A stretch of 64,000 bases of DNA, taken from Marsupella aquatica (Eukaryota; Plantae; Marchantiophyta). A program made the position numbers and the translations under genes. Position 1 is the first letter of the stretch; every line of letters begins with the position of its first letter. The notes below the pieces were generated by a model. The model was not told the DNA's origin and did not search any database. It worked only from the letters and a program-made list of their open reading frames with translations. Where the stretch lies: assembly GCA_973895155.1 (NCBI GenBank), contig OZ316896.1:20962152-21026151 (forward strand), written 5' to 3'. This document shows, piece by piece, positions 1 to 24,529 of the stretch.

Positions 1-814
1 GGGTAAGTCAAGAGGTTCCGTCTGGAAGATTAATTTTGCGTTTACTGATGTAAGTGGTGTCTTGACTATGGAGGTCCGTGTATTTTAGTGGACGACTCTT
101 CAGATTTTGCGTCCACCTCTCCTCTAAGTTGATCACGTTTGTAGGAGTCAGAGCTTTTTGCAACTGTGATAGCCTGCTCAATATATTTGGTTAATTATTT
201 TGAGTTCCGTTCCAGAATGGATCAGGTTCCAGCAAAATTAAGAAGATCAGAAGCAGCCAAACTATAAAGACGAAACATTCTTCCACCAAATAAATATCAG
301 AGGTACTGTCCAAGCACTAATTTTGGAGAGTCCCAATTACAACGAGCATCTTCATACTACTACAAGTGATACTACGGGCAATAAAAGAACACACAAAACC
401 TTTCCGATTCTGCTTACGAAACGAATAAAAGCGTGAGACATCAAACTTCTGCAAATATGTGCCCATCCGTTGCAGTTTTTCGTTCCTAATCTCTGCTGTT
501 TTCAGGACGCAGCTGGCGTTGCAGCTTGTGGACCCCCGTGTGGACCACCATCAGCAACTAAGGCGACCTCATAGATGTATGTTCCACTCCCTGCTGTTGC
601 AAGACGACATGTTGGACACCTCAGGTCAGGATTATTAGTATACAGATCTCTGGTCTGTGCTTGCTAACCTTACCTATCACTGAAGACAAAGCATAAAAAA
701 CTATCACGAGGACCCAAATCTCAAGCTTGGCTGAGAAGCAAAAATGTCAGTAAAACTGAACCTCAAATACTGGCTAGAACATATTGTATGATACCTTTGA
801 ATGATGAGTGAAAG
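1..814 (-). pseudogene. Partial duplicate of the APE1 3' end (3' flank, last exon ~502-596, part of last intron), left of the transposon insertion
   Basis: Colinear high similarity to ~44280-45336 (e.g. gtggacgactct..ttttgcgtccacctctcctctaagtt; last exon tcaggacgcagctggcgttgc..cctcatagatgt). Confidence 0.85.
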
Positions 815-856
815 ATCAACCTATTCATTAAAAGTATATTATTATTTTATTTATAG

Positions 857-1156
857 TGTACTTTTGGGCGAGGAAAAGTGTACATTTGGCCAATTAAAAG
901 TGTACATTTGGGGATAAAAAATGTACAATTGGCCTAAAGAGTGTACATTTAGACAATAAAAAGTGTATACTTGAACATCAAAATAGGTACATTTGGCTTT
1001 AAAAGTGTACATTTGAGTACATTTGGCCTAGAAAGTGTACATTTGAGTGAAAGAAACATACATTTGGCTTAAAAAGTGTACATTTAAGTGCAGTTGGTCT
1101 AGAAAGTGTAACTTTGAGTGCAACAAAGTGTACATTTGGCCTAAAAACTGTACATT
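857..1156 (+). repeat. Left subterminal array of aaagtgtacattt motifs (more than 10 copies, ~20-bp spacing)
   Basis: Repeated aaagtgtacattt(gg) directly inside the left TIR; the same motif occurs 3 times at 24418-24474. Confidence 0.9.
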
Positions 1157-4100
1157 TTCCTACCAACTCTTATTATAATCATTTAAAAGAAAAGAATGAA
1201 TAGAAAAATATTTTTAATTATGCAAAAAAGCAAACATTCATATTCATAACGATCAAAAATTTAGAAAATGAGGAGATAGTATAATTAACACTCAATGACA
1301 TGGTCTCACATTAAAACTATTAGAATAGTAAATAACTAGTACGTAAGTTACTATGTTTGAATGAGTGTCGACTATTTACATAAAAACTAGGTAAGTAACT
1401 ATCTAAATTAATTTAATTATTATAGCTTCGCAAGTAACAACTAAGTCTACTTGTCCATTCTTTGGAGATAACTTTGGACAGTTTGTACTACTTGTCCATC
1501 CTTTGGAGATAACTTTGGACAGTTTGTAGAACATTTCGAGGAATCTTCAAACCTCTGCCCGCCATGTTTTCTTCTTTCATGCCAGATTTAAAACCATACA
1601 TTGCAGAATTTGCATACTGCCAATGTTGAGCGTTCTCACCAAACCCTGGATCTCGTTCCCATGTCTTAGTGGACATGAAGCAGTTTAGATACCGTGCACT
1701 CTCAGTCACATCAAGTTTAGAGTGTTTAGGCCTCCACCATTCGACTGGAAACATTGGAGCATATTGTTGAGGCAGAGGAGGGTTTGTTGGAGATGTAGTT
1801 GGGACTTCATGCTTAGGGTCCACCGAACCCAAAGCTCTCACCAACCAAAAATGACCTCCACCATTTTTATTCTCCCAGTCATCCTCAGGTCGAAGAAATA
1901 CAAAGTTCCCTTCATGAATATCCTGTAGGGGAATCCACCGTCCTTGTTCTCTCTTAGCTCGAGATCCAACAAATGGTGTTGCTTGATCTTTCATCTCTTC
2001 CAAGACCTCATTTTGAAGAGCCGTCATCTCCGCATTCTCCTCATCTTCACTTGGAGGACCACTTTGTTCTGGTTGGTTGACCTTGTAACCAGTGCCGTGG
2101 TTAGTCTTAGGCCAAAATCCATTTTTCAAGGGAAATTGAGTACTTCCCTCCCCTTCTAGTGCAAGCCCATTTGTCAACAACTCCACAATTCTCTCCCAAT
2201 ATTTGACAAGAGGAAATCTTTCCTTATATGCTATAGATGTCTCATCAGTGCAACTCCTTCTCAAAAAATCAAGATACTTGTTAAGAAATGGGATAATCTC
2301 TTCAAATTTTTTGTGTATCTCTCCAATGGATTTAGCTAAGGGCTCTCCACTAGGTAAAAGAAGAGAATTTGTTGTCAGATCTATTGCCCAAATGCACCTT
2401 CCTCCAACTGGAGCCCAAGCTTGCTTTACATGGGACTTATACTGAAATATTGGTACATTATCTCTCATAGAGAAAAAAAATGATACGGGTTTTGAGTGAT
2501 CTTGAATATCTTTAACTCTGAAAGTTTGAAGATATTCTTTGTAAGATGCAACTTCTTGTATCAATCTGGGAACTGGATGAATGCTCTCACATTCCCAAAC
2601 CTCTGCCATAAGAGCAAGGAGAGTTGCAACTTCCTTGTGTTGAACTTGATATGATACCTTCGAAAAGAGTGCATCAACATCTTCGTGTGTATGACCAACC
2701 ATTAGAAAAGACATTTGAACAGTTTCAAATACTCCTCTACTCACAAGCTCACTACAAAATGCCATGACAGTCTGGTTTTTGTTATCCTTTGGTGAGTTAT
2801 CCATTTGTAGTGTTAGGTGCCTTGGCAAGGGCTTGCCTTGTTCCCCATGCATGTCCCCTCCTTGATCCTCACCATGTTGGGTGGAGACCGTCTCTGTCTG
2901 ACTCTCGGCTGCATCTTCAGAACCAATATATCTATTCATTGGAATACTCTTTGGTTCCAAATATCCCTTAAAAAATGCATCAAAGTCAAGAAGGGCTTGA
3001 AAGAAAGGTCTATGAGGTTCCAAATAAAGATCATCCAACATGTCACCTGTCTTGTCTCCATTGTACTCTTCAAGGTCTCGAAGACACTTAGCCAAGGATG
3101 TCACCGTGAAATCAGTATCTTCTGGCCAAAGGCCAGTGACACTAAAGCGTGCATAGACTCCTGGATCCCTTCCGTGGGTCAACATCCCTGTGAGAGCAAT
3201 AGGTAGTGGCATCCCATGACCTGAAAGCGATTTAGGAGTACTGACCATTTTTGGAATCCACGTCTTTGCTTGATCCATCTTGTCGTGAATGATGCAAAGA
3301 TATTCCCCTGGATGTTCCTTAGCCATCACTTGATAAGCATAGTAAACATATCTACGTGACATATGCTCATGAAGATGTTGCGCTTGTTTTTCTTCAATTT
3401 CAGCATGCTCTTTTTTCCTTCTTTCTCGCATCAAACTATCTTTGTATTCACAACAAAGAGTACACTTGGCAAATGCATCATCTTTATGGAAACTGAAGTT
3501 TGCGAATGATTTGCTCCAAATCTTGTACAGAGTATTCTCTGTTACTGGAGGAAGCCCCTCTTCCTTCATCTTTGTTCTCACATCTTCCAAAATCTCCAAC
3601 TTCTTGTAACATGCTAGAAGACGATACTCAATGGAGTCTGTCCCATGAGCCCCAGCATAAGGTATATGAGGCATGGGCTCTGCATTTTGAGTCAAAAAAT
3701 CCTCCAATAGAGCTCATGCATGCAAGGTATTTGACCTTGTTTTCATGGAGCCCGTGTTTCCATGGAACCCAATTTTGCAACCCTCCACATATCTCCTTTT
3801 GTAATCATAATATTTTGTGTGGCTAAAGCCATGGATGATTGCAAATGCATGTCTACATACGACCATACCCTTGAGAACATGGTGCCCCTTATCACGAACA
3901 TCATCTTCTCTATAGTGGAAGAGGTTGAAAATGTGTGATGTTTTTGACTCGCTAGACATCCCGTGAAATTCTATCCGGATATCTTCTATGTCTTCTCTTG
4001 GCATAGTCAGACAACATTTCTGCTTGCAAAAATTCTCTCTTTTAATTTCATCAATCGAAGCTTCCGTTGTTTTTGAAACTGCCTTGGTTTCCAACAACCT

Positions 4101-5479
4101 TCTCTTCTTTTCAATCGGATCTACATGAGTCCTCTTGTTGAAACTGTATGGCCTTGTGCGCGGCATTCCCCTATCATTTACATTTGGATAGAGATCATCC
4201 CTATCCACCGTCTCCATCCTCTCTGAACCTTTAACCAAAATGTCCGACAAAAATTTCCCGTTTGCAAGTAGTTTTGTTGAATCAATCCGCCACCGAACCA
4301 AAGTAATTACTCCCCTATGGAAATTGGGAAAGTATTGTGATTCCACCACATCTTTCACAACAATCCCTACTTGGTCCTCACCAAGGATTTCATCGTCAAC
4401 CGCTGTCGTTTCTTGAGGCACAGTGATGGTCCCCGTGGCAACCCTATTGGTTCGATCTGAACCGATGTATAGTTCGACCAACTCTGACATCCAATTTGAC
4501 TGTTGGAAATAGTCACAATTAGTTTTAGAAATTTCAGCTGAGGGAGACTCCGCAACAAAACTCCGCTCTATGTTGATATCATCGCCCGCATCCTTCTTTA
4601 AGATCTTTCTACTTCGGACATCTGCCACATCCTAGAGAACCCATGAGTCTTTTGCCTCGTCAATTGTTTCAGCCCCGCTGTGTTTGTAAGGTAAAACCCT
4701 ACTCCCATGAATGACATCAGTGATCCTCACACTGATCCGTGATTCACCAAGTAAAATGTTGTGACATCTTTCCATTGGATTTGTATTGAAAACAACTCCA
4801 AGGGCTACACAACACCCAAAGATGAACATTTCAACCTCATCCCCTTGCCTCAGAGTGATCGATGAGTCCTCCTCTACAATTGGATTTTTTTCCAAATTAC
4901 GCTCCGAACACAGTGACGGACCAAACGAGAAGTATGACCACCGAACAAGAAGTGTGTTTTTGATTTCGTGAAAAATGGCGAAAAATCACTAAAATTAAGA
5001 TCAAAAACGCTATTTTGAGGATGAATCCAAAATCGCATCCAACATCGGATTTCAAATTGAGATACTGTCGACACAAAAACAAAGAATTGTCACAATCCAG
5101 AATTCTGATACACTTCATCTAAAAAAAGTGCAAATTCCAAAACCTAGAAAAACAATGCTTTTCACGTGATCCTTCTAAAAGCTAAATCCGAGCGTCAAAC
5201 AAAACGATAAAACACAAGATTTCATTTTTGCCATCAAAATGGCAAACTGAAAATGGGATACGGCGTATCCCATTTCGGATTCAACCGTTGAACGTGAACA
5301 AAAACCGCACCAAATCATTCTCTTGACGCTTCCATTTAACCTCGAGTTTAAAATATTTGAATTTTTAACTGCAGTAAAACCGAAAACTGCGAAAAACTGA
5401 CCGCGGACTACAGTCAACCCACACAGTTAGTTAAGTTAACCCGACGATATGTCCAGAAATTTTTTAGCCCATAACACAT

Positions 5480-6590
5480 GATGAATACGAGATGGGATCC
5501 AAGTATCCACTATCGTATTCAACCTCGATGTTTTCCACCTGCAACTTTGCATCAGAAGATCTTTCGACATGAATACCAACTGAGATCCATGGATCCCATT
5601 TTTTTTGCAAGTCCAAAAACTCATCGGGAAAACAGGAGGATGAATATCAGATGGGATCCATGGATCCCATCTAGTATTCAACCTCTACATTTTGAACTTT
5701 TTGCATTGCATACCTTGATATTCTAGTTTGAAGACCAACTGGGATCTGCGACGACTTCCTCAAAAATCTACAATTTAAATTTCAGCATTCCTTGAAAAGA
5801 CAAACTCTCACTTTAAAAAACCCTTGTATGGACCACTCAGGGAATGCCAATAGGGATCCACGTATCCCATTTTTCTGAACAAGTCAAAAAATAACCCACT
5901 CAAAACCAAGGATGAATACCAAATGGGATCCATGGATCCCATTTGGTATTCGCTTGCCAAAATTTGCCCTTGCCGCACCTTGCACCTTGATATTGAGGTT
6001 TGAATACCAACACGGATCCATGGATCCCATTTGGTATTCACCCGCCAAAATTTGTCATTGCCACACCTTGCACCTCAACATTGAGGTTTGAATATTGACA
6101 CGAATCCATACCGACACGGATCCATGAGTCCCATTTGTTGATTCAACTCCAAACAATTTTGGATTTTTCCTTGCTCAGCACAACCCCAATCACATCCATT
6201 TTTTACTCTTTCAAAATATGTAGGACCAATCAACAGACCTACCTAAAAATGGAGGCAAATACCAAGTGGGTTTGTGGATCCCACCTCAGATTCAAAGTCC
6301 CGGATTGGCCCTTGGTCACAAGTTACTCATCCATTTTCACATTTGAATACAAAATTGGATTTCATTTGGTCTTTGTAAAATTATTATCACACTTTGTAAA
6401 GTTCTTGATTTGTAAAATAACATGTTTTTATACCAAATGGGATAAAACAACATGTTCTTATACCAAATGTGGGATCCATGGATCCCACTTGGTATTCATA
6501 CAAGGTTTTATGACTTTTTTCTTTCTAGATTTGTGAAATAACATGTTTGAATACTACATGGGATTCTTGGTATCCCACTTGGTATTTCTC
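5480..6590. repeat. Array of palindromes tgggatccatggatccca flanked by gaatac..gtattc
   Basis: Multiple copies, e.g. ~5651, ~5923, ~6015, ~6470. Confidence 0.9.
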
Positions 6591-6899
6591 TTGAAGTTTT
6601 GATCATTTGTGATTTTTTTACAAATATAATCTGGATTTTTTGCAAGATTTTGCCTGATCTCAGATTTTTTATTTTTCTATTTTTGCAGCGCTGAGTAAAG
6701 CGGCCGAAAAGTCTCAAGCTCTTCTTTCTAATGGTATCAATTATAAGGAATTTGGATGAATACCGATAAAGATATGGCTTCCAAAGCGTGAGAGGGTACA
6801 AACTTAAGTTTTTGTAATTTTATAAATTTCACCCCACAGCTTAATCTAATCATATCTTAGTCAATCTTGCATTTTGCACCTAAATGCTTCATATTCAGA

Positions 6900-7565
6900 G
6901 GTTGAATGCAAAGTGGGATACCCCGTATCCCACTTCGCATCCAACCTCATTTTTTCACGTTTATGATACCCAAACTGGATTTTTGAAGATTGAATCCCAA
7001 ACGGGATACGCCGTATCCCATTTCGCATTCAACGTTGAGGTTTTGACATTTGGAGTCTAAGATACTTCATATTCGGAGGTTGGATGCGATATGGGATACC
7101 CCGTATCCCACTTCGCATCCAACCTTATTTTTTAGCTAAAGTGAAACAAAAACTGGACATTTGAAGGTTGAATCCCAAACGGGATACGCCGTATCCCATT
7201 TGGGATTCATCCTCGCCATTTCCATGAAGATTCTTACTTGTTAGCCAAATCTGATTTTCAGGGAATACAGGTTTGTATAGACGGTGTGCATTCGTCAAGA
7301 GTAAGAGGATACAGAGCGAGAAAAAATGAGCGGAAAATTCTCAAGCGGTGATCTCTTATTTATAGTTTTCTCTCTGACCGTGGTTAGTATTTGACTGCAA
7401 TTGCATCGCAATCGGTTAAATGTTACCGTTGAGAAGAATCGTTTGGGAATATTCTTGACGGGTAAACCAATATTGGCACTTTTACTACGTTTGTTTTAAT
7501 TTTTTTTGGAATTCCGCGGTTGGATCCGAAATGGGATACGCCGTATCCCATCTTCGTATTCGTGT
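6900..7565. repeat. Array of palindromes gggatac(g/c)ccgtatccca (one further copy at ~5254)
   Basis: Copies at ~6915, ~7003, ~7092, ~7181 and ~7532; 6890-7030 and 7067-7210 are a tandem duplication. Confidence 0.9.
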
Positions 7566-8099
7566 TGATTTTTCTCATTTTTTAAATTTGAAAAACTAGT
7601 TTTTAGGGGGAATACTAATTCCGTATCCAAGACTTTTTTGCCTTAGAAAATTTTTTTGCCGCAGGCAAAATGAGAAGTGTGGTCACACTTCTCGTTTGGT
7701 CCGTCACTGTGTTTCCGGTCGATTTGAACAACTACCTACACTAATGCATTTTTGAGAATTTATTATCGTTCATAGATATGCGCAAGACAAATCCCAAATA
7801 ATGCAAGAATCAATGGCATCAAAAAGGTTTTCTGCCTGAGGCATTGAAAATGGTAGTTTTGTGGTTCGGTCAAAAACTTTCTCAATGAGAACGCCCATTC
7901 GATTCTCTCTCAACAATATCTTTTGAACACTATCTTGCGGGTTGATGTTTTGAACTGTCCCGCTTGCAACATCGTAACCACCAATTGTCAATATCACATT
8001 GTCGCCTCTCAAAAATATTCCGGCCATTCCTACAACGTGTTCACCTGCACAATTTGAAATGTAAGGTATTAGTTAACAATGGTCCCAACTAGGAAGCAG

Positions 8100-8450
8100 A
8101 TAGGTGTGAACCCTATCCAAGGACAGTGCACAAATAGGGATCATCCCCATCAAGAAAAATAATAGGTCCCTAAACAATCCTTATCTAGCCCTAAGATCCC
8201 TGATCCCTATTTAGATGTTGGATAGGGATGATCCCTATCCAGACGGCAGATAGGTTTTGTCACTGTCCAAACAATGGACATAGATGATCCCTGTAAACGG
8301 TGGACAAGGATCATCCCTGTCCAAAATCCAAACAGGGATGATCCCTGTCAAAACGATGGATAGGGTCTGTTACTGTCCAAAGGGCGGACACAGCTAATCC
8401 TTGTCCAAATGGCGGATAGGGTCTATCACTGTCCAAACAATAGACATGGA
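8100..8450. repeat. Hairpin repeat array ggacagggatcatccctatccaaa (left part, interrupted by element B)
   Basis: ~30-bp periodic motif of the same type as 16670-17205. Confidence 0.85.
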
Positions 8451-9078
8451 TGATTCAAGGTCCGGATCACTTAGGATCACTCAGCGGTCCTATCTGAAAG
8501 TAAAACCTTTCATATTGAACAAGAAGCCTTAACTGATGAGTAACAAGCCCATACTTTAGGAACTCTAGCCAAAAAATCAGAAAAACAACAAAAAAGTAAA
8601 AAAAAAGTGCAAAAATTAGCACCTATTTTAGAACAAAAATATGGAGCGAACAAAATATGACATAAACTAGCTATGTTTTGATGCCTAAAAATGACCAAAT
8701 TCATCTGGAGTTACATTCCACCAATAAATGATCTCAAATACAACACTATTATCTACAATGGTCTCACAATTACACGAGCTGTCTCTTGAAACAACAAGTA
8801 AATCACCTCCAAAAGCCATTGTCATTTAAAAACCAGAAAATAAATTACTACAACTTAACCTGATAGACATTATTGTGAAAAGAAGACAAGGAGAATAGAA
8901 ATGACACCATCTAATTGAATTGAAACACAACCCACTAAGAAAATATTAAACTACAAATTTCTCAAGAAACTTTAACCATGAATTCATGAATAAGTGGTAA
9001 AGGCATTTTGAAAATTTGAAAAATTACAAGTTATCAATGTTTTTCAATGGTAATGTCACAAACAATAACTACTTTTCA

Positions 9079-12000
9079 TTACTCAGATCCAGAAGTCCTC
9101 AATTCTTGAAACGAAATATCCCTAGATTTATCTCCTAGCGGGGTTCTAGCTGATCCATTCTCTTGTTCTTGCTCTTTCTCTTCTGCCAAAAATTCAGTCA
9201 ATCGGATTTTGATTCGATCTACTGTCTTTTTGTACAATGTATCAGATTTTATCAACATGAAGTTGTAAGCAAAAACAGTCGTTGAAGATAAATCAAGCTC
9301 TTGGTGAAACCATATTGGTTTCAAAGTTCCTTTCCCACGACCACTTTTCTTCTTTTCGTAGTTTAAGACTTCCGGTAAGTACTTGGCTTTCCAAGGATCT
9401 GACCCGGTTTTTGCAGCATGCCATAAAACATAAATCATTTTTGGAATGTTGAACTCGTCGCGCTGGTCAATTCTTTCCACCTTGGCCACCCAAAATGTTC
9501 CTGATTCTTCTCCAGCAACAGAAATATAAGTGTTGACTTCAAGATCCAAAAAGTCTCCTTCCATATTCTCCTTCTCTGCATCTATCTTTCCTTGATTCCG
9601 ATAAGGACCCACGTATATATCTCTGGTAGGTCCGTATACTCTCTCTTCAATTTCCTCTTCATTGACAAGGACTCTGGGAACTTCAGCAGCAACAGCAATC
9701 TCCCCTTGGGAGCGTGGCCATTGAAAAGGGAAAATCAATTTGATCAAGGAGCAAAGATTTATTCAATTCCCGTTGCTCTTCAAAAAACATTCTCCACCAA
9801 TTCACTTCCTCTTCTGAGAATAAAGTTTCAATTGCAAGTATTCCCTTTTGAATCTCATTTAACGAATCATCCATCTCCTTCAAAGTCATTCTTGAAGAAC
9901 TAGACATATTTGGTTGAGTCCTTGTAACGTTCTTATCCCCCTTTTTGAAAAGGGGTAATCCGGGAGCACAACCCATCACCTTTTCTGGCTCCTCTTCCCT
10001 CAAAAATTTCACGCCTCCATCAGGTTTCCAAGTTGAGTCTGTGGAAAACTTCTTCCCCCATTGGGTTGGAACTTGATCTTCCAACTTGTCAAATGCAAAT
10101 TTGTACTGGTGGTGGAAGCTAGGTAACATTTTGAATCCTTTCAATGACTAAAGGTGGATCTGAGAAGGCATATTGACGGAAATCATATGTTTCCTTTAAA
10201 AGAGTGCTATTTGGTTGGGGTTGATATGATTCACAAATAATATCACATAGGCTTTTGTATGTGAATGCCTTAAACCTTGCTAATCGTTTAGAAAATCGAC
10301 TGAACATTTGATCTATTTGGTCGTGTGTGTGTCCAACCAACAAGAATCCTAGTTTGATTTTCCGAAAAACCTTTCTTTGAATCAACATATGAAGATAGGC
10401 AAAGAGTAAATTATTTTTATTTTCTCTACTGGTATTATCAAGTTGAAGATAGAGAACAGGCGGCAAGCCACCAGGCTTTTCTTCCCATTCGTGAAACACC
10501 CTTTGCAGGATTGTGACTGTCAAGTTTCCATCATTATGCAATACAGGATAATTAAGAAACACTCTTGAAAATAGTGCACCATTGAAAACCAGGCATCCGA
10601 CAACGTGCATTTGGATCAAACATGTTTCGTCCACCGATTTTGGGGGCCGCGGCCAATGAGGCAACCTTGTCTTCTTCTGATCCATCCCATCAATGACAAC
10701 TCCCAAATATTTATCAGGATTTGAAAAACATTTCTTACGATGCTTCGCGAGTTTCTCACGTTCTTTGGATTGTTGGTCTCTATGTTTTTGTAACATAATT
10801 TCCCCTCGCCCTGGAAAAACAACTTGTTAGTTTCTTCAAAAAAAAATAGAAATCATGTGCTAAGCCATATTCTTGAAACAAAAACTTGTCAAACTTGTAA
10901 GTAACTTACTCTTTTCGGTCTCCGAGACAGCTTTGTCCCAAATTGATTTGAACTCCTCGCAATCCGCGCAAGCACTGAATCGATTGACTAGAGGAATCTT
11001 CACATGACCAAATTCTTGAACCCAAACTTTCAAGAATTGTCGATAGGATATTTTTGATGATTCATCAATCTTGGCATAGTTGGAGTCGTAGATCTTCCAT
11101 ACCTCCAACTTTGAATAATTATCCGGTAAATGTGAAACTTCTTTATTTGGCAATGTTTCCACGCATGTCTCAAAAAATGACCTAAGCCAACTGACCAAGA
11201 CTAATCTTTTAACAGATGGAGGGCGTCCAACTGGTTTAGAATATCCTAAGTCTTGGTTGTCTAATTTCAAAATTCTATTTAATCTATGATTGCCAACGCA
11301 AAATATAAGCTTGAAAGCTTTCCGACAAATACTCTTTTGACCAAACGTGTAAGATATAGTCTGCCTCCCTCCTTCATTTCCGTCTCGCTTTATAAGCCAC
11401 TGCAAAGATAAAGATCGATCCTGAGATTTCTGCCTAAAAAATTTAGAACGCGCCTCACGAATTTCTTTTGGAGATAGACTTAGGAGACAATGACTCTGAC
11501 AACAGTACTTACTATTTGTTTTCTTGATATCCTCCTCTTTCAACTTTGTTTCACACAAAGTGGCATTGCTCGTACGTTTGTAACGACTAGATGCCACCGG
11601 AACATCATCATCCTCCCCACTCTCCGAAGACTCGCTTTCATTCGATGATGAAATGGTCACCAACATTTGCTTCTGAAGATGCCGAGATTCTAGACCTGCA
11701 GCCTTCGGAGATGGAGGCTCTTCCTTCACTCTATGCAGCCTTGGAATACCTGGGCGTATTTCAGAAATCCCTCCATTACCGTGTAGGAACCCTTTCAATA
11801 TTTTCCTAGGGTCTCTCTCCACCAGGTTGGTTTCCCTGTTTGAGTTTCCGTGACTTGATCCGCTCCCTGCCCCAACACCCTGACTCCTAGGTAAAACTGA
11901 GGAACGCACATTAGAATTCCTTTGTGGAATACTTTTCAATAACACTGGTCGTCTAGTTTCTTCCCTCATCCCCCTGTGAAATGTTTCCGACGTTGGCTTA

Positions 12001-12473
12001 CCAAAGGTTTTACTTTTTGGCATTTGCTTCAGCCGTTGAACACTTTGGAGACTGCAAAAATCTGTCATTTTCCCCACTTAGTGCCTTCTTCATCTTTCCA
12101 AATCCAGTCTTCATGAATTCATGAGACCGTTTCCCAGACATCCAAATAGGCATTGAACCTTCCAGATTACTCCCCAATTTGTCCTTTGTTGGTGACAAAG
12201 GAGATACAACTTGACGTCCAGGGGGACCAATACTCTCCAAGGAGTCAGAGGAGCTCCCTGACCTCTCCTTACCACCGACCAATGATTTCTTCCCACTAAT
12301 TGCAAGTCGTAAAGGACTACTTTTTAACTTGCTCATAGGGGTGGGGGTGGCATATCTAAAACACTAGTTATTCCAGGGATATCTGGGCCAACGACTGTGC
12401 AGGGGCCATCCGACAATGAAACATCATCAGAAACTCCATCTGAATAATCATCTGATTTGTAACATGCCGCCAT
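9079..12473 (-). pseudogene. Transposase B: second Sola-like/DUF7869-type DDD transposase, with one intron (~10811-10909) and several frameshifts
   Basis: Motifs IDGMDQKKT, LQLDNTSRENKN, FLLVGHTHDQIDQMFSR, CCQSHC, ICRKAF, CADC. A GTAAGT..TTCCAG intron joins ORF 10860-12077 in frame to ORF 10119-10796. Frameshifts at ~12350, ~12050, ~10120 and ~9740. Confidence 0.88.
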
Positions 12474-13254
12474 TGGAAAAACTAGTGCAAATTGACAAGA
12501 AACTCAGAAAATCAGTAAAATCTAACAAATCTTCTCAAAATAATGACCAAGAGTCATGAATAAACGAGCCTATTTATAGTTTTTCACGGATTGTTGGGAC
12601 TTTTTAACTTCAAAAATATCAAATATTCATGAAATTTGCAAGCTTTTTCCCGTTAATACCCCAAAATATTCATGAATAATTGGCCCGAAAACATTGATTT
12701 ATCATGATTTGGGGTTAATTTTACTAAGTCGCGCCTGATCCGTGATTAGTATGTATAACCAAGGAACACGGGGCAGCCCATTCATTTTCACTCGATGTCA
12801 TTTGGATTTCCTTTGTAAAAGAGTGAAAAACAATCTCGCTGTCCAATTTCGTGCCATTTTTAGCACTCATTGGTGACGTGTCGCGAGTTGTCGTGGTCGC
12901 GCTTCATTTCGACCCTATTTTAGGTAGTAATTTAGGCCTTGGGTGATTTCTTCACGTCACCCCCCCCTTTGAACCCTATTTTGAATACCCTTCTGGATCA
13001 CCGAGGTGTACAAGCAAAGAGAGAGGAGACTCCCTTCATGAATTCATGAAGGTCGGTGCGAGAGGGAGACTCCCTTCATGAATTCATGATAGGAGTCCTG
13101 GGGTGGCCGAGAGCATTGTTAGATCCGTAAGGACACGGCTTTAGTAGCCATTTGTTGGCACATTCCTTGGTTTTGTGGCACTTTGTCTCGCAGGTTGGGG
13201 TTTAAGTGGACTGATTTTGTGGTATGTTCTCAGGTTTGAAGATCAGGCAAAAAC

Positions 13255-16200
13255 ATGACAATGTCGCAGGAAGAGCTGGTGGATGACATCTTTTCGCACC
13301 ATCCTTTGACGGACTTCCACAACTCATCCTGGAGGATTTCCTTAGGGACGGAAACATGGAAGAAGCCCTTCCTAATGCTATGTGTATTTGAGGGGCTTCC
13401 ATTGGGGGCATTAGGGTGGGTAAATTATGGCCGTATCGATGTATTTTGATGGGGCGACGAAGTTGTGAACATGTTGATCACAACAAAGGAAACGTCGACT
13501 TTGATTGTCGTGGATGTGGAGAGGTTTTCCAGAACGGCTGCCACCTGCTATCTCGATGAGGACATCGATAGCATCATTGAGACTGTCAAGTCTCTTTCGA
13601 GTGAGGAACGTTACCACGACATCGCGGGAAAGATTTCCGGTTTTGTGTTCGAATTTCACGCTAGCACTTTAAAGAGTGCAATCCGAAAATTGAGAGAGAT
13701 TCTCCGGAAAAGGTTGGCAGAGAAGGGGGTAAGTCGTCCACCCAAATCTGGGGCTTTCAGTGTTCCTTCTGGATCCAGGCCTAGCATTTTACCCGATGAT
13801 ATTATGACCGTGGTAGCGCCTACGACCTCTCGGGAAGCAGCAGCATCTGGAGGGGGATCTCAAGTTGGCAGATCATCCTAGGGAACAGCTTTGACTGGTG
13901 GGTGCACACAAGGTACGACTGGAACTCACACTTCTTCAAAGAAGCAACCTGCTATGACTCCTGAGCCTACCGAGCCCAGTGCTCCAAAGTCAAAAAAGAA
14001 GACTTTGGAGAAAATTCCAACGCATTTGGAGCAAAAGGCTCAATCAATGTCAATGGATGCACGGGTATTGTACCAGGAGGAGATTCTGGGAAGATGTGGT
14101 GTTCAAGAGGAGACCGTGACCATTGACATTGGTCAACTTTACCCTCCAGTGAGAGAGAAGGCTGTGGGCTTGCCCATTTACCAGGTCCGACACATCCAAC
14201 CATATTTCTTGACCCAATTGACCTTGCGGATGAAGACTGTAGGTGCCAGTCCACTTGCAGCTCCGTTTGTCCTCTTGGTGGATCCGAAGGAGTGTGCTAC
14301 TAGGCAAGACTTTGATTTTTCAAGGAAAGCTGATTACCATTATTATGTGATTGGGGGCAACCATTCAGCCTGTGCCAAAGCAGACCTTGCTCTTCAGTTC
14401 CCTAACAACAAGGCATTTCGGAGAGTGCAATCTTGGATATTTGCGGGATTGAGTGTGCAAGAGGCCAGAAACCTGGCGTGGAGTCACAATATTGATTCTG
14501 AATTTTGACAACAGATGACGACAATCCAGAGAGTAAATTATATTCACATGAGATTTGTTGAGAATGGATTGTCGTCCAACCAGGATTTCAAGAAAGAGTG
14601 TGCTACTGAAATCAATCTCAAGGATTGGGGTGTACGAAAGGATGCTGAGGTTCTTAATGCCAATGATAACCTATTTCAGTTGGCATTCCGACAAGATCCT
14701 GTGTGGTCATTTGTGAGGCAGATTTGTGACAAGTGGGAGATGTGTGAGATCAAAGGTCAAAAAGGAGACAAGGGCAAGAAGACAGTCTCTAAGTCTGGAG
14801 ATGCCAAATTGCCTTATGAGGACATGAAATTAACAGAGTGGAGACACATGCAGGCCTTGAAGGATCCTGATATGATTTGCCCAGTGTTACAGAGAGTTCT
14901 TACTAAAGAACTCTCTTTACAAGAAATGGGTCACGAATTTACTCGACACAAATTTCAGATGCAGGGCTAGGTGCAGAAGGCCTTCCTCACGTGTCTACAC
15001 GAGGAGAGTTGGTCAGGTTGTAAAACCAAGTACCCTGAGCATTGCACAGACAATGTGCTTAAGAATTTCGTACCTGTTTTCCAGACATGGGTAAGATTTT
15101 TTCACCTTTCTTCGAATGATTGTTTGAATTCATTTAATATTTGGAATCCTTGTTTCTGATTGTATGGTTCCTTTTTGTAGAAAGATACCACCTCCCGGAA
15201 AAAGAAGGGAGATGAGGAAGGCAAAGATCTCAAGTCATTCCCGGACAAATTCAATGCGCATATTGTGCAAGCGCAAAATTGGCTATCCATGAAGACTTCT
15301 AGTCGGCAAACCCAAGAGGGGGAACTTCATCCAAATTCGTTTGAGCATCCAGAGTTTGGTGATGTGCAGTATGATATTTTTACTCATGATGCTCAGCGAT
15401 TACACGAGGTGGTTCCGGGTCGGGCTTACACATTAGCTTTAGTGGATATTCCCTACGGGTTTGCATTGCCTGGATGTCTTCATGAGGACACTATTGGATG
15501 GGGAACTGAGGAGATCACAAAAATGGTCCAATCGTTCAAGGTGGCTACTACTGCAAAGTTGTGGCGTATTATCATTCACCACAGCCTTGACCAATATGAG
15601 GCCATCAAGACCATTTTGAAAGCGGAGTGTAATGGAGGGTTCCAGAATTGTGTGTGGTAAGAAATATTTGTTTTTGAAAAAAACAACTATTAGTTATTCA
15701 TGATTTCATGAACCATGTTTCTAAGTTTAAATGACTCCTTGACTTTTTGTGACTTTTCAGGGCTAAGGATAATGTGAAGAATGCTGGTGGACCAAGATTG
15801 AACAACAACTTTGAGTGCTTTACAATTGGCTTTCACAGCCAGGATGGTAAACGGTCATTGGAGCACTTCAATTTTGACACAAATGAATCAAGGAACAATG
15901 TGGTTGTATGCGCAGCTGTGACTAAGAAGCTGAAACACAACGGGGATAACAAGGCAGTGAATGTTTATCAGAAACCACGTGCATTGTTAGATTGGGAAGT
16001 GAGTCATTTTAGTTAGGTTGGAGACTGGGTTTTGGATATTTGTTCAGGATCAGGGATTGGGACAACCTCCTCCTTGGCCATGGGGAGACATTGCGTTGCC
16101 ATTGAGATTGACGAGCGACAGAGCAGTATGTTGAAAGGGAGGATTCTTAACCTTGCAAATAACATTGAAGAGGAAGACGGACAGGGGGAGACGGATGAGG

Positions 16201-16322
16201 AGAGTGAGGAAGACATTCCTCAGGCCGGAGAGGATAGCGTGGTTGACGATGCCACAATTGTTCCAGAATTGACGGCAGGGACTTCCGGAACCGAGGAAGG
16301 GGAAGCGGTCCCTTTGGATTAG
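13255..16322 (+). pseudogene. ParB/Srx-like domain fused to beta-class amino (N6-adenine/N4-cytosine) DNA methyltransferase; exons 13255-15090, 15181-15656, 15761-16322 (~957 codons, five in-frame stops)
   Basis: ParB-like YYVIGGNHSACA. MTase motifs in beta order: LALVDIPYG (IV), WAKDN..FECF, YQKPRALL, GDWVLDICSGSG (I), GRHCVAIEIDE. GT-AG introns 15091-15180 and 15657-15760 keep the frame. Confidence 0.85.
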
Positions 16323-16669
16323 ACTAGGTAAATAGAGGGACTCGTAGCATTTGAAACCACTTGAGCTTAAGTTGGGTTATATTTTGTAAAACTTTGAGTT
16401 TGACTTAAACTCTGATCGATGAGTTTGATTTTGACTACTTTTATAAAGTGCATATTTCAAGGTTTATACAATTGTGAGAATATCATATAAGATATGCTTA
16501 GATTTTGGGGCTAAAATTCTCTTGAGTCTAGTTTGGAAAATACATACCATTTTTTGGTGGTTTTTTGGTACACATTTTTGAATATCATGAAGATTTTGAA
16601 AAGAGAAATAAGGCTTTGGACTCATCCCTTAAGGCTTCTTGTTATTGGGGTCCCATAAACAAATATCTC

Positions 16670-17205
16670 AAACGGCGGACAGGGATCATCTCTATCCAAA
16701 TGGTGGACATGGATCATCTCTATCCAAAAGCCGGACAGGGATCATCCCCATCCAAACGGTGGACAGAGATCATCCCTATCCAAACGGTGGACAGGGATCA
16801 TCCCTATCCAAAATCCGGACAGGGATCATCCCCATCCAAATGGTGGACAGGGATCATCCCTATCCAAAATCCGGACAGGGATCATCTCCATCCAAACGGT
16901 GGACAGGGATCATCCCTATCCAAAATTTGAACAAGGATCATCCCCATCCAAACGGTGGACAGACATCATTCTTATCCAAAAGCTGGACAGGGATCATCGC
17001 CATCCAAACAGTGGACAGGGATCATCTCTATCCAAACGGTGGACAAACATCATTCTTATCCAAAAGCTGGACAGGGATCATCCCCATCCAAACGGTGAAC
17101 AGGGATCATCTCTATCCAAACGGTGGACAACCATCATTCTTATCCAAACAGCACATAGGGATGATCCCTATCAAAACAACTAACAGGGATGACCCTTGTA
17201 CGGAC
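16670..17205. repeat. Hairpin repeat array tggacagggatcatccc(t/c)atccaaa, ~29-30-bp unit, about 18 copies
   Basis: Directly visible tandem array; each unit is an imperfect inverted repeat centred on gggat-c-atccc. Confidence 0.95.
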
Positions 17206-17579
17206 AATTAACCTCTACACACTAATTTAATGTTTGACCAAAGAAAGGTTCGATTGAGATGATCCCAATCGTGAGTTGGGCTGGATACCCCAACCTTAAG
17301 TAACTTAGATATACAATTCCTAAATTTGATACACGGTTACCTGTAATGGAAATAATTCTCAGTAAGCTGGTAAACTAAATGCTTCAGGGGTGTGGAAGAA
17401 ATTAAAACTAGATGTTCTGTCTAGAAAACAAGAGTGGCTCAATGGGGCTCCGTAATGAACAGACCTGGTTGAGAGACTGAATGAAAATCTAGAAATGAAA
17501 ATACCAAATGAGGACCAGCCGGAGCAGCCCAAGTATCTTATACCATTTGTTCAAGATCGCTCTTACGAATAAGGCGATG

Positions 17580-17960
17580 CGTGATCAGCCTTAAGCAGTG
17601 GCGGAGTTTAGGGTCGAGTGGATTAGGTCACCCACGCCACACAACCAAGTCGGGCGGCACAATTTACACAGCCTTGCATTTAGGGTTTGCCTTGCACGGC
17701 TGTCTTGCCCCGCCTCGCAGCTCGGCCTCCCACGTGTTGAGTCGGCCTTGCCTCGCCTTGGTGGGGGGGTAAAGGAGGCAAGAGGTCCCACTTGGGCCTC
17801 ATTCTTCTTCCCTCCTCTTCTTCGCTCCTCCGCTCCTGTGCCTCCGCTCCTCCGCTCTTCGCTCCTCCGCTCCCCCGCCTCATTCGCTTCCAGTCTCCCT
17901 AGGCCCCACTCCACCTCCGCCTTCACACTAGAGTTTTTGCCCTAGCCGCCACGTTAATTG
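17580..17960. promoter_or_regulatory. GC/CT-rich putative divergent promoter/5'UTR of element A
   Basis: CpG-rich, pyrimidine-tract island between minus-strand transposase A (once B is removed) and the plus-strand ParB gene; similar in composition to the host upstream region at ~60300. Confidence 0.4.
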
Positions 17961-18179
17961 CCCTAGATCTAACGCTCTGTGATCCTCCATGTGTCCATAC
18001 GGCCACGTGTCACAAGATGGATCCATCTAGACCTATTCATGTGTCTTTGGTCGTTGAGCCAACAGAGGAGATAGACCTCTCCTCCATTGAGGATGTGGTA
18101 GACACGGCCCTCAAGGATTCCAGAGCCTTCCAATTGCTCAATCCAAGTGAGTATCTCGGTAACAAGTTGAATATTTGTG

Positions 18180-18455
18180 CAGTGGACAGAGATCATCTCT
18201 GTCCAATTGGACAAAGATGATCCCTGTCCAAGTGTCCAAGTAGAAGATAGTGATCTTTATTACGAAATTGGACAGAGATCATCTCTATCCAAGTAGAGGA
18301 TAGAGATCATCCCTGTCCAATTCCTAATAAAGATTGTCAGTATCCTTTGATCAAACAAAGATTATCTTTGTTAGGAATTGGACAGAGATCATCTTTATCC
18401 AAGTAGAGGATAGAGATCATCCCTGTCCAATTGGATAGGGATCATCTCTGTCCAA
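18180..18455. repeat. Hairpin repeats ggacagagatcatctct(a/g)tccaa
   Basis: Same motif family as 16670-17205. Confidence 0.85.
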
Positions 18456-20134
18456 ACTGTGAGAGAACCTCATCTTTGCCGATTACAAATTAAGATTTTC
18501 CAAACTAATATGCATGGATGGGACTATTGCAGGGAGCGATCTAAATGGATTGAAACCAGCAATTTCAGAATCAGATTGCTCCAAGGGAGTCTTGTTGGAG
18601 CAGAGAAAACCAGATTTTCGTTGGGGCCTTGAGTTCTCTAGAGTTGATTTTGATTTCCTTAGCACGTCATAGAGACGGGATCCCATTTTGTGCATAAAGG
18701 TCAGAACATAAGATCAAGAGACTCTTGTACTCAGACCTGTAGTCTTCATTGGAATTGAAGGAAGAGGGTTTGTTTCCGTCATTCTTGAGCTCCATGAAAG
18801 GATACGATGGGTTAAGCTACATCTACCATCAAAGGCGTATTCTTTAGAGTTCAATGTTGAGTGGTCTGCTGCTGGAGAACTTGGCGTGATGGCAATGGGC
18901 TTTTTCCCTAAGTTGTATTCAACTCAAAAGGTGATTGCTGGAGTGAAGGGGATTCTTCTACTTGACATCATGTATGGGTTTCAATATGTGAAGCTGAATA
19001 TCCATAAACACCAAGGGAATTATACATTTCTGGTGACATGGATTTTAAATAATTTGCTCGACAAGGCAGGATTCCTATCTTCCGAATCAAGTGTTTGCCT
19101 TGACAAGCAAATTGCATTTGCAGAGGAGTTTGCGATGGATAATGCAAAAAAGTGGGTAGAATCATTACCCAAGCCTACAAATGTTGCACCAGTAGCAGTG
19201 AACGAGCTTCCAATAGTTGTTAACAAAGAAGTTCCCAAACCTAGAAAAATATCTTAGGAGACAATAATGACTGCAGGAACAACGGCTGGGACAAGCACCA
19301 AACAAGTGGTAGGGAAGCGAAGACTAAGAGAGAGGAAGGGTCGCGAGAAAATTGAGACATTGCCGAAGGAACCCGAGAAGAAGCCAATAGCGAAGAAACA
19401 GAAAACTGACAAGTCTCTTTTGTGGTCAACCCCTACAGACGTACAGGTGCTTCCAGAAGATGAGGGAGACAAACTTGATGCCCCTGAGGAGAAGAAGGTC
19501 TTAGAAGGAAATGATGTTCTCCAGAGAATAGAGCAGTACTATACTTTTGGGATAAATGAACTGTTTTCTATTCCAGTGGAGAAAATTGTGCCTGCACCTG
19601 CAAGATTATGTTACATGATGCTTAGTAGTACCCATGTGAAGCACATAGCCGAATCCATGGTCAAAAACCCTGGACATGAACCTCACGTCGCAGACCTGCT
19701 TCCTTATAGTCCGAAGCTTAGAAAGTTGCTCCATTTTGACAGCACGGAGAACGACCGCAAAGACTTTCTTGCAGGAGTTAAGAAAGGCGAGATTGGTTTC
19801 TTTGCCATCAGTGGGCAACATTCGGCTAGGGCGGCCAAGTGGGTTCTTGAATGGGCCAAAACTGATGCCAAGCTCACAGTGTTGGCAAAAAAGTTAAAAT
19901 ACAGGAAGTCTAGATTATTGTCAGACCTTACACCATCGGCTATATTGGTTGAGCACTCAATGAGATCAAATGCCATCAATTCAACGATGGTGTTTCAATC
20001 GTGCTTCAAAGATACAATTGTTCATGCAAGGAAACAATTCCTTGAATGCGGAGGACCAAGAAAGCCAAAGCACGGGGACAACAAGTCAAACGCCCAAGAG
20101 AATAAAAAATTTCAGGTGAGAAACATTTTTCTTG

Positions 20135-20475
20135 TTTGGACAAAGATGGTCTCTATCCAAGAGTGTGACCGTCCGTTAGATTGATTTTAGTTCAATATAT
20201 TTCTGGTTATAACTTGGATGGAGATGGTCTTTGTCCAAGAGTGTGATTGTCCATTCTAGAGATTTCTCTTCCTTCTACTTTTGGTTATGACTTGGATGGA
20301 GATGATCTCTGTCCAAGAGTGTGATCGTCCATTCCAGAGATTTCTCTTCCTTTTACTTTTGGTTATGACTTGGATGGAGATGATCTCTATCCAAGAGTGT
20401 GATCGTCCATTCCAGAGATTTCTATTTCTTTTACTGTTGGTTATGACTTGGATGGAGATGGTCTTTGTCCAACAA
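20135..20475. repeat. Intronic 60-bp tandem repeat containing ttggatggagatgatctctgtccaa
   Basis: Three near-identical 60-bp units plus degenerate flanking copies inside intron 20116-20544. Confidence 0.9.
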
Positions 20476-23032
20476 GCAAGTGATAGTTTGTTGTCAAATC
20501 TCATTGATTGTAGATAACTCATTTTCCCCTAATTTTGACTGTAGGATTATTTGGCATTGGCAAGGATGACCATGGGGAGAAAAGACTTGAAAAATTTATA
20601 TTGGTTGCTCTTTGCCGAGAATGATCTTTTCGAGGTCTGGCGGTTAGTATGCCAGATGTGGATTGATGGACATCTTCCTGATGGAGCTGGTACACAAGGA
20701 AACAAAATGTCTGAAAAGGGTATAACGGTCGCAATGTTTTGTTGTTTTGATGGTGAAATCTCAAGTAGAGATTTGACCAGAATTTTGAACAAGGTGAAGT
20801 CAGGTCAGGTTTTATTGAAGAAGGATCCAACAAATAAGTCAGATGTTCCAGCAATGGAGGACTTTGCAAAGGAGATGAAGATATTGATCAAACTGAAGTC
20901 TCTTATTGGAGATTACTACTGCAAGAAGGATCCAAAAAACTTCCTAGCAGATAGTGATTGGGTTAAAGTAATTGAGGTCCTCCCATTGTTAGATGCCGAG
21001 TCGGAGTTGAACAGGTGCCGAAGAGCGGCTGGTGAAGTATGGTTGACAAATTTATTGAAGTCTAATGATACAAAGGAGAGTGAGATATTTCCAATGACAT
21101 TGGTGATGCGTCTAGATGATATTTACTGTCAGAAGTTTGGCGGTGGGACAAGTTCTCGGACCCAACCATGGGTCACATTTTTTAGTAATAACCTAATGAA
21201 GACAGTGGATCCGGAGTCGTTCGAAGAACAATCTCCAGCATGCCCTCTTGCAATTGTTGATTTCAGCCGACTTCAACAGAAGGAGTGGACCGAAGCAGAG
21301 ATTTTGGTACTCTTCCAATACATAGTAGAGCTACCACGGAATCTCACCATTGTTGTGATGATAACTGTCCATCCGGATTACCCTTGTATTGAATGTCCTA
21401 AGCGCTCTTCATAAATTAGGACATTCAAAAACTCTCACTATTCACATTGAGTATGGGAGTTATTACCGAGATGATCAACCTCACCCTCACAACTCATGTT
21501 GGAAGGGAGGAATAGAAGAAGTTATCTTTGTGGGAATTTCTTGCGAAGAGAACGTCAGCTGGGATGAAGTGTTCAAGCCCAACCAGATGAAGCCAAAATG
21601 GGTGTACGGTGACAAGGATACTGATTTCATGGTTGAGAAGGTCAAGGGAAAGGGAAAGGCAAAGGACGCGGACGAGGAGTCATTACATGTAGATCTAAGA
21701 AATATGATGACCCCAGAAGAGGCGGAAATACTTCTGCACATGGCACCTCGATTTGAGACGGTCGGCACTCGGGGTGGGTGGGTGAATCCTCACGCCAAAC
21801 CCACACGGATGATCCAAAAGATCATCCAAACACTGTCCGAGCCGGGGGATTTGATTCTTGACTTTTTCTCTAGCGGTCAAGTGATGAAGGCATCCCTTTT
21901 TTCTCAACGTGAATGTTTTGTTTATTGTGACTCTCAACATGAGTTCCTTTGTGAGAAGGTTCCCACCATCAAAGATCGTTATGATCGCTATGTCGGTGGA
22001 AGTTCTAGAAATTGGGAACCCTCTTCTACCGCTGTTGCTATTGACGATGAATCAGATGGTGATCAAGAAGATGGAGCTGACCAACCAGTCAAAGACGATG
22101 GGCCATCGGAGGGGGCATACGTGAAGAATTTGGATGACCGAGTTGGCGAGGGTGAAAATATTGACCTTGTGGAAGACGATCTATGATTGTTGGAGCTGCA
22201 CCTTGCAGTTCACCAATTACAGATGTTGCCCCCATGGGCCCCAACGAGGGCCAGTATGATGATAACTTGGATAGAGATGGTCTCCATCCACAATTGCTTG
22301 GACAAGAGATGGAAGTTGATACGTTTGAAAAACTGTCTTCAAACAACCTTCTCAATCAAGGTGCGGAGAGGCATGGTGAGTCCAATGAACTCGACAAATT
22401 GGGATTGAGACCACAGCCCATCCAAATAGTTGACATTCTCATGAATGAAGCAAGTGCATCCACGACTGCTAACAACCAGGCAGGTGCTTCAATTTTTCCC
22501 GATACACTCTTTTCCGCTTCTGATGACAAATTGGTGTTTGTTTGATCACAATCAAGAAGTCCCGTTATCCTTCCACTCCAAAAAAGAAAGGGAAGACAGT
22601 AGGATCAACTGGATATAAGTCACTTGAATATGATTGTCGATGTTACGTGTGGAAAAGTGGACCCGATGTAGGAACTGAAGTTGCGTTGGATGCTGCTCAA
22701 TCAATTTTGAACAATGACTCGTACAAAAAGCACAAGAAAGATCCAACTTATAGAAGTGGAGAATTGGGATTGATAACTCCGGTTTGGTCTGCACCTTATT
22801 GGATAGAGGAGAGTACCTCCAATGTCAATTATGAGATCCAACAAGAGCTCGGTGATGATATCTTGATTGATGAATATGGATCTCATTGTTAGCCAAGGTC
22901 TAGATTGAGCCATGTGACCTTATCAATTTGATATAATATAGTCTGTATAATTATACTTCAAGTTTAACAATTAGAGCATCAGTATCCATCTCCTCTTTAC
23001 AGTTTCTCAATGAATACGGTCAATATGCAAGA

Positions 23033-24142
23033 TTGACAGAGATGATCTCTATCCAAACTTCAAATGTGGTTTTTTCTCTAAGATTGGTATTTGTTGCACT
23101 TGCAGAACCAAGACCTTGTTCCATCAAGCGCAAATTGCTGATTTTGGATCTTAACAAAATACTTTGGGATTCAGTTGAATTCCAAAGCAAGGGCAAATCC
23201 AGAAATGTTGTGACCCCAAGTGGAGTGCATTGGGATAGAAAATATGGAATGAGTCGCATGTATACAGAAAGGCCAGGGCTCCATGAGTTTCTAAAGTTGG
23301 TTTTTGACCGATTTGACGTTGCAATTTGGACATGTGCTGGGGTACAACAAATAGTGAAAATGTTGAACATGATGTTCACTGCTGAGGAGAGATTGAAACT
23401 TAAGTTTGTATTCACACAGGTGGAAGCCTTTGACACAGGCATTCAAAGGCGTGACATTACAAATGGAAAGGCAAATCTGCTACTGAAGGATTTTCGGATG
23501 GTATGGAGTGGATTTGAAAATCTATATGATGAAACCAACACCCTCCTTGTGGATGACTCCCCCCTTAAGGCATTTGCCAACCCAAGCATGACCGGACTAT
23601 TTCCAGTGCCGCACACGCATGCCAATCGTGGAGATAATTTTCTTCTTACAATTCTTTGGCCTTGTCTTGAGAAACTATCACATGCAAGTGACATTAGATG
23701 TTATCTTCTTCTTAACTCTCCACTGTGGTCTCTATTGCACATAAAGAGCGACAAGGTAAAAAATGAAATTACTTATGATCAACTTAGTAAGAGATGCGCA
23801 ACAAAAATTTAGAAGTCACAGTTTACGCATAGTGTGTTGGACCTCAATAGCAATGAGATTCCTTGGAACGTGAAGCATCATATATGTAGTTTACGTCCTG
23901 AGGTAGAACTTGACAATGCACTTGTCACCTCACTTGCTAAAGCATTTGTAGGACGGGACTATTCAGGTCCGTATAGAGAAAATCCTAGACACTTTTTGTG
24001 GGAGATTATAGCCATTAGGAACAACACCACCAACTTTCAGCTCCCTGAAGATAAAGGGACTTGCAACCGTGACACTAGGGTAGATAGTAAAGGAGACAGG
24101 GGCACGTGCTCAAATACACATTGTAATGAGCACTTTGTTTAG
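23033..24142 (+). pseudogene. FCP1/SCP (NIF)-like HAD phosphatase, cargo of element A; one in-frame stop at 23810; true 5' end uncertain
   Basis: LLILDLNKIL, RPGLHEFL, FDVAIWT, LLKDF..VW, NTLLVDDSP.K...NP; ORF 23834-24142 is in the same frame. Confidence 0.8.
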
Positions 24143-24417
24143 AGATCTGACTCATGTTAAGCCCCTTAGATAGAAGAAATACATTGTAAATTTGGAGATA
24201 ACTGTATATTATTTTATAATCTATATGGAGTTATGTCATTTTGTTCACACATATTCAAGGGCTTCTTTGTGCTGAAATGTTTTTATAAGTATGATCTCTA
24301 TCCTACTATTCTTTGTGAATTAATAAATAATGATCTCTATTATATTATTCTTTGTGAATCAATAAATGATATAATATGTATTATTTATTAATATAATAGT
24401 AATATGATTTGGCCTAT

Positions 24418-24474
24418 AAAGTGTACATTTAGAGACCAAAAAGTGTACATTTGGGGACATGAAAGTGTACATTT
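24418..24474 (+). repeat. Right subterminal aaagtgtacattt repeats (3 copies)
   Basis: Same motif and same strand orientation as the left array. Confidence 0.9.
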
Positions 24475-24529
24475 CAAGATTGATTTGTGAACAAAAAAAA
24501 ATACACTTTTAATGAATAGGCTGATAAAG

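Follow-up and report, generated by a model that had tools for sequence, protein, structure and literature searches.

What is a gene for a ParB-like domain fused to a methyltransferase doing beside a transposase gene, twice, in the genome of a liverwort? The locus lies in 64,000 nucleotides of Marsupella aquatica (contig OZ316896.1, positions 20,962,152 to 21,026,151; this 64-kb stretch is the window below), where a preliminary description had pointed to two nested, diverged transposons, each with a minus-strand transposase gene head-to-head with such a partner gene. We found terminal inverted repeats (TIRs), 4-bp target site duplications (TSDs), a common layout, both predicted folds in one of the two partner types, family palindromes at conserved places and purifying selection on the partner. 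With moderate confidence, we read the elements as a two-gene, Sola-like lineage in which the ParB-methyltransferase partner likely binds the palindrome of its own family, so controlling or organising the element; one branch would have retained methylation.

An inverted-repeat and TSD scan of bases 1-26000 delimited three nested elements, all bounded by short TIRs and 4-bp TSDs:

815..24525, no strand: element A, outer TIR pair with ATCA... ends, 26/30 terminal bases matching; TSD AAAG at 811-814 and 24526-24529
8518..16643, no strand: element B, TIR AACAAGAAGCCTTAA, 25/30 terminal bases matching; TSD ATTG
4907..7713, no strand: element C, TIR AACACAGTGACGGACC, 29/30 terminal bases matching; TSD TCCG

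The nesting of two elements thus stands, with corrected ends for A and B and with C as a third element. The A pair ranks first among all pairs with a 4-bp TSD (19/20 bases) and has subterminal AAAGTGTACATTT repeats at both ends; these ends may belong to A itself or to a host miniature inverted-repeat transposable element that A entered. Element B sits inside the intergenic palindrome array of A; a TTAA target site for B was rejected, because the TIR extends past the TTAA. Element C, non-coding and non-autonomous with internal GGGATCCATGGATCCC / GGGATACGCCGTATCCC palindromes, splits the A transposase gene, and removing it with one TSD (2811 bp) restores a continuous frame. The C-free site was found in other copies, as a joint 4902->7714 in contigs from 4/4 sequencing runs (3 studies), and one weak joint, 8254->16834, bypasses B (one run; 21 letters on the short side). 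Contigs of these runs, many of them differing, cover all 30 bins of 600-20500, so A and B each form a multi-copy family. Two of the A stop codons are not shared by other copies, nor are the 6 bases at 14963 in B. Both gene pairs were found where the preliminary description had placed them, and all four genes are broken in the present copy:

1488..8027, minus strand: A transposase pseudogene, DUF7869, with the three-aspartate (DDD) triad; split by C; stops at 7770, 4632 and 3714
9079..12473, minus strand: B transposase pseudogene, DUF7869, DDD; stops and frame changes
13255..16322, plus strand: B partner pseudogene, three exons, ATG at 13255 and stop at 16322
18017..22186, plus strand: A partner pseudogene, weakly ParB-like at 19540-19840, then a helical region and a degenerate methyltransferase

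A 41-bp tandem duplication at 1447-1528 spans the stop of the A transposase; it is likely specific to the present copy, because it is absent from contigs of run X1.

The head-to-head layout recurs in four complete elements (A, B and two found elsewhere, L024 and L029) and in one partial contig, L001. A partner-first pattern search of metagenomes returned 124 matches, two of which were relatives (L001 and L002). The head-to-head open reading frame (ORF) of L001 has the N-terminus MAACY...SDDVSL in common with the B transposase (score 64 vs at most 53 in 300 shuffles), only 635 bp lie upstream of the partner in L002, and both partners keep B's two downstream intron positions. A transposase-first search of GTDB contigs returned 44 matches, 17 of them relatives; 11 had at most about 2 kb of upstream DNA and were not judgeable, and six had at least 4.5 kb. 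Two of these six, L024 and L029, have a spliced head-to-head gene encoding ParB, helical and methyltransferase-like parts (ParB E 7e-30 and 4e-26). Their elements measure 13.8 and 10.9 kb, with AAC TIR ends and TSDs TTAG and ATAA, and L024 shares its first 9 bases with element C. On both records the sole clear transposase locus and the sole strong partner locus belong to the same element; among five records searched, the partner occurs in two, each time inside the element, besides two weak extra ParB fragments. At one locus (L052, 7470-13670, G002:C12) fragments of a DUF7869 transposase and of a ParB-like domain, in duplicate, lie on the same strand, in a different or rearranged layout.

L024 and L029 lie on 589- and 733-kb contigs of GTDB bacterial bins. 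Because their genes are spliced, a Helitron adjoins and their proteins group loosely with animal proteins (89/90), they are likely animal DNA, probably host contamination of the bins. The family is not restricted to land plants. Several GTDB bins (L014-L030) hold contigs with eukaryote-type transposases, likewise a likely host contamination.

The description of the transposases as Sola-like DDD enzymes making 4-bp TSDs is borne out. Both match Pfam DUF7869 (E 5e-44 for A and 2e-49 for B), which we take to be the Sola transposase, and both retain three conserved aspartates, CxxC and a histidine; D540, D701 and D743 are nearly invariant across 25 aligned sequences. A 4-bp TSD was found in 5/5 bounded elements (A, B, C, L024 and L029), and 24-29 of the 30 terminal bases of their TIRs match, within the Sola range of 11-1124 bp. 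The ends of the A/B lineage read A(A/T)C and the TSDs vary (AAAG, ATTG, TCCG, TTAG, ATAA). Four of the five TSDs end in G (AAAG 811-814, TCCG 4903-4906, ATTG 8514-8517 and TTAG at L024 3753-3756), possibly a target preference; L029 has ATAA. In the accessible part of PMC10741241, Sola is likewise described by a DDD transposase, 4-bp TSDs and short TIRs, in elements of 8-24 kb from bryophytes and animals, and by that description the A and B transposases fit beside it. Unlike Sola, the A/B lineage has a second, head-to-head ParB-methyltransferase gene. The transposase motifs, DKMDQ/DGMDQ, QLDN..K(D/E)NKN and GHTH(E/D)..D, also differ from DFAENY, SDG..QYKN and TSHGK of Sola2, as aligned in supplement 10 of PMC3627910.

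The A-type transposase has abundant relatives in Riccia sorocarpa and some in Ceratodon (107 matches among 5252 candidates). In a quick transposase tree (35 sequences, without L022), A, B, L024, L029 and L014 fall in one clade of 19 rows (Shimodaira-Hasegawa-like approximate likelihood-ratio support 90, not starred), with L020, L021 and L025 outside; the partner is present at 2/3 testable loci inside this clade. The partner tree is poorly resolved. Very long DUF7869 ORFs (1800-2400 amino acids) occur at L020 5972-13264, L021 6512-12307 and L019 1052-6568, and one of these ORFs includes a SET domain (E 2e-5). The divergent genes upstream of them are of other kinds, which makes these loci another two-gene branch.

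The B-type partner bears out the predicted ParB and methyltransferase folds. The gene has GT-AG introns at 15091-15180 and 15657-15760 and five in-frame stops, and encodes in order an N-terminal domain, a ParB-like domain (~14100-14570), a helical region and a beta-class amino-methyltransferase, in which motif IV (DIPY) precedes motif I (DICSGSG), the permuted order of the beta class. Exon 3 passes the cut-off of Pfam N6_N4_Mtase (E 4e-7); Pfam ParB_N gave no match by sequence. A D12 methyltransferase match on the N-terminus (E 4e-4) was below cut-off and was set aside. The B partner matches the family profiles at E 3e-64 to 4e-20. A search with exon 1 gave 13 relatives of 52-70% identity (872 candidates), the closest named one in Calypogeia fissa (61%), and a profile search with an E ceiling of 0.001 gave 471 cluster representatives. 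Among 20 representatives there were four each from Chara braunii and Riccia sorocarpa, three from Adiantum nelumboides, four unnamed, and one each from Ginkgo, Ptychodera, Saccoglossus, Exaiptasia and Clastostelium.

The folds are assigned to B through a structure model of its relative P0045 (789 residues; 68-sequence alignment; mean predicted local distance difference test score 79.6). The C-terminus of this model matches the methyltransferase CcrM (Z 22.6, root-mean-square deviation (rmsd) 3.7 over 219 aligned residues; E 1.5e-11), and residues ~90-440 match ParB/Srx proteins: PadC ParB-N (Z 9.4, rmsd 3.0, 99 aligned), Pnob8 ParB (Z 9.0 over residues 91-440), KorB (Z 8.7), sulfiredoxin (Z 7.5) and Spo0J (Z 5.4). 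PDB sequence searches gave no useful match. ParB clamps are CTPases that bind cytidine triphosphate (CTP) through an arginine-rich motif, dimerise and bind parS; at the position of that motif, the family reads GG(N/G/Q/T)H(S/T), without the usual arginine. By language-model features, the nearest named cluster to the P0045 ParB-like domain is DUF3723 of ascomycetes (score 0.95), presumably a Starship accessory gene.

For the A partner the same assignment is less firm. Its methyltransferase passes the N6_N4_Mtase cut-off (E 4e-6 at 21365-22183), with DFSR at motif IV and DFFSSG at motif I. Three family profiles put their best non-B match in this gene and in the correct order (E 0.57 for the ParB-like part, window-wide, 0.95 and 1e-8). 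Compared with the B family by hhalign, the ParB-like part reaches a probability of 56% (pairwise E 1e-4), which is weak support, and the other parts 26% and 0.4%. No homologue of the A partner was found among 7992 candidates (lengths 394-1257 only) or among phages; its nearest named cluster, as a lead only, is DUF3723 (language-model score 0.79).

The methyltransferase part matches 574 phage records, and its best sequence matches are phage enzymes; one phage record that we checked encodes a ParB_N and N6_N4_Mtase fusion near terminase genes. The accessible text of PMC4738411 describes such a protein in a ParB-terminase locus (Javan93_0016), also with ParB/Srx followed by a beta-class N6_N4 methyltransferase. 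The partner differs in being spliced, in its extra N-terminal and helical regions and in its tie to a transposase instead of a terminase, and the two align in sequence in the methyltransferase part only. Among viral contigs none encodes a relative of the partner or the transposase; eight carry the palindrome pair described below, and neither gene was found on them.

Whether the partner could methylate DNA would depend on the branch. The D-x-P-Y motif, in which the first proline is replaced, and the glycine-rich S-adenosylmethionine loop (GxG) are kept in B, L001, L002, Chara and Adiantum; the catalytic loop is degenerate in A, L024, L029, Ptychodera and Exaiptasia, and in A this may be peculiar to the present copy. 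Among the partners of B, L001 and L002, nonsynonymous divergence (pN 0.10-0.29) is far below synonymous divergence (pS 0.67-0.83), methyltransferase exons included, with synonymous sites near saturation. These ratios show purifying selection on the B-type partner, its methyltransferase included. The B type retains the methyltransferase motifs, save for that first proline, whereas in A and the animal-type copies they have decayed, so the conserved job of the partner is likely DNA binding, not methylation. The B-type branch is predicted to methylate DNA. Enzymes with an aspartate motif make N6-methyladenine (6mA) and those with Ser-Pro-Pro-Tyr make N4-methylcytosine (4mC); the Asp-x-Pro-Tyr motif of the B type suggests 6mA rather than 4mC. 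The proposal that the element is marked by 6mA or 4mC is thus possible for the B-type branch and does not extend to A and the animal-type copies.

Each family has its own palindrome:

13036..13089, no strand: two TCATG-N4-CATGA palindromes in the B intergenic region, at a distance of 40 bp; L001 has the same pair at 40 bp and L002 at 42 bp
8100..8460, no strand: left part of the A-type palindrome array (GGAYAGRGATSATCYCTRTCC), just upstream of the A transposase ATG
16660..17200, no strand: right part of the A-type array of 28-bp palindromes, 18 copies

All four exact TCATG-N4-CATGA sites of the window lie inside B, the additional copies being at 12111 and 15698. With one mismatch there are nine in the window vs 4.2 expected, six of them in B; L001 has six sites vs 0.36 expected and L002 three vs 0.17. 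TCATGA occurs at 6.2 times expectation in B and 1.0 times in flanking DNA. In B, L001 and L002 alike, the pair lies between the genes and one further site in the partner's second intron. B and L001 also have one palindrome in the 5' coding region of the transposase and, upstream of this gene, a TATA box followed by a TCATGA half-site. The A palindrome (21 bp) matches at 28 sites, every one within A but not in B or C, beside the transposase start and in the partner introns; the 28-bp arrays flanking B are part of A.

Under our reading, the partner, which joins a ParB-like domain to a beta-class methyltransferase, would bind the palindrome of its own family as a dimer, and the partner rather than the transposase would read these sites. 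Binding beside both promoters and in the partner's own introns would amount to autoregulation. The B-type enzyme would add 6mA, perhaps at the CATG half-sites, and methylation would be optional, surviving in a single branch, because the other branches lost the catalytic loop. The gene itself may derive from a phage ParB-methyltransferase. A bolder version, which we regard as possible and hold tentatively, is that these are eukaryote-wide transposons with a domesticated phage ParB-parS-methyltransferase system, in which ParB sits on parS-like palindromes and the streptophyte enzyme writes 6mA, a mark thought to be lost in streptophyte plant hosts, keeping the element active or timing transposition.

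Several observations weigh against the reading that we prefer. No partner is detectable at four of the six testable transposase-first loci (L014, L020, L021 and L025), so that the idea of a core partner gene, though it gains from the recurrence of the layout at L001, L024 and L029, holds only in part. L014 lies inside the A/B clade and has a palindrome array with no detectable partner, and C has palindrome arrays without any gene. The arrays of L029 are subterminal, which fits transposase binding equally, and L024 is without palindrome excess, with 12 in the element (13.7 kb) and 11 in 8.8 kb of surrounding DNA. Among those listed, four Riccia partner tags adjoin no Riccia transposase tag, the nearest being 19 tags away. 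The ParB-like assignment of the A partner is weak. Finally, the palindrome patterns were picked after seeing the sequences, and the conserved places therefore weigh more than the shuffles.

The arrays in C, in L014 and near both ends of L029 would be expected if the palindromes were binding sites of the transposase, repeated binding motifs being common in TIR elements, and if the partner acted elsewhere, in anti-silencing or target choice like the VANDAL accessory proteins. We consider this rather doubtful, since the sites of B, L001 and L002 lie away from the ends, occupying the intergenic region and intron 2 of the partner at conserved spacings, and the A palindromes fill the partner introns.

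That the partner has long travelled as a passenger, as Fanzor does in Sola2, of use to some branches, gained and lost freely and outside the transposition mechanism, appears unlikely to us. The four partnerless loci, the loss of catalytic motifs in several branches and two weak ParB fragments of G002, on the same strand as transposase fragments and not head-to-head, would fit it, and capture of passengers by Sola2 elements is on record (PMC3627910, in its accessible part). Against it, orientation and domain order are the same despite less than 40% transposase identity and hosts that are likely plants and animals, and the partner is under strong purifying selection.

Least probable is that a catalogue already lists the family with its second gene annotated, for example under the large Sola elements of mosses in Repbase. 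PMC10741241, in the part accessible, records Sola elements above 15 kb as well as Sola in Physcomitrella, and in UniRef some relatives from Chara and Riccia carry the label 'DNA methylase N-4/N-6 domain-containing', but full-text literature searches gave no description, and the accessible text of a 2026 preprint on transposon adenine methyltransferases (bioRxiv 10.64898/2026.05.21.726589) has no ParB and no Sola. The earlier statement that no description of this architecture was known holds within those searches, Repbase, Dfam and subscription papers including Bao et al. 2009 being outside their scope. In the portions accessible, Sola is mentioned by PMC4455052, PMC5751038, PMC12973397, PMC3985635, PMC10294476 and PMC3627910, none of them with such a second gene.

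Two other systems bring prokaryote-type methyltransferases into eukaryotes. The DAM-LTR (long terminal repeat) and DAM-DIRS retrotransposons of the same preprint are also mobile elements with an adenine methyltransferase, proposed to mark themselves; as described in its accessible text, they differ in being retroelements with an Asn-Pro-Pro DAM domain, without ParB or DDD transposase and tied to AMT1 hosts. Marchantia MpDN4MT1 and rotifer N4CMT are prokaryote-derived beta-class amino-methyltransferases of a liverwort and an animal, and the P0045 model matches the fold of N4CMT (Z 18.7). By the accessible text of bioRxiv 2021.02.12.428880, they are host genes with a TSPPY-type 4mC motif, whereas the partner family has DIPY, DFPY, DLPY or DAPY, is fused to ParB and is mobile.

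If our reading is true, a cut-and-paste lineage with a ParB-type partner and operator-like palindromes is common to plants and animals. It would also supply a candidate enzyme and a candidate motif, TCATG-N4-CATGA, for the disputed 6mA and 4mC of charophytes, liverworts, ferns and gymnosperms, and many Chara and Riccia gene models named 'DNA methylase N-4/N-6 domain' would likely be transposon genes.

Element A holds further ORFs downstream of its partner, within 22165-24142, flanked by A-type palindromes. One further feature is recognisable there:

22937..24142, plus strand: HAD/NIF-type phosphatase pseudogene inside A (Pfam NIF E 8e-15, HAD-IIID E 2e-15)

It has DLN in place of the usual DxD, and A-type palindromes stand ahead of it at 22269 and 23034.

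Elsewhere in the window, the ORF list points to a minus-strand gene at 34070-38637 with alpha/beta-hydrolase-like, NB-ARC-like and leucine-rich repeat parts, which we take to resemble the hydrolase-NLR (nucleotide-binding leucine-rich repeat) class of liverworts. Together with the Calypogeia fissa relative of the B partner, this gene fits a liverwort host. ORF fragments at 40831-43482 (minus strand) resemble the reverse transcriptase region of a non-LTR retrotransposon. Likely host genes encode a plastid-targeted protein (47627-48220, minus strand) and an ABC-F type ATPase (61353-62821, plus strand). Two degenerate tandem arrays of 17-19 bp at 28500-30000 and 49800-50340 consist of related GACATCTT units and are possibly the ends of another repeat family.

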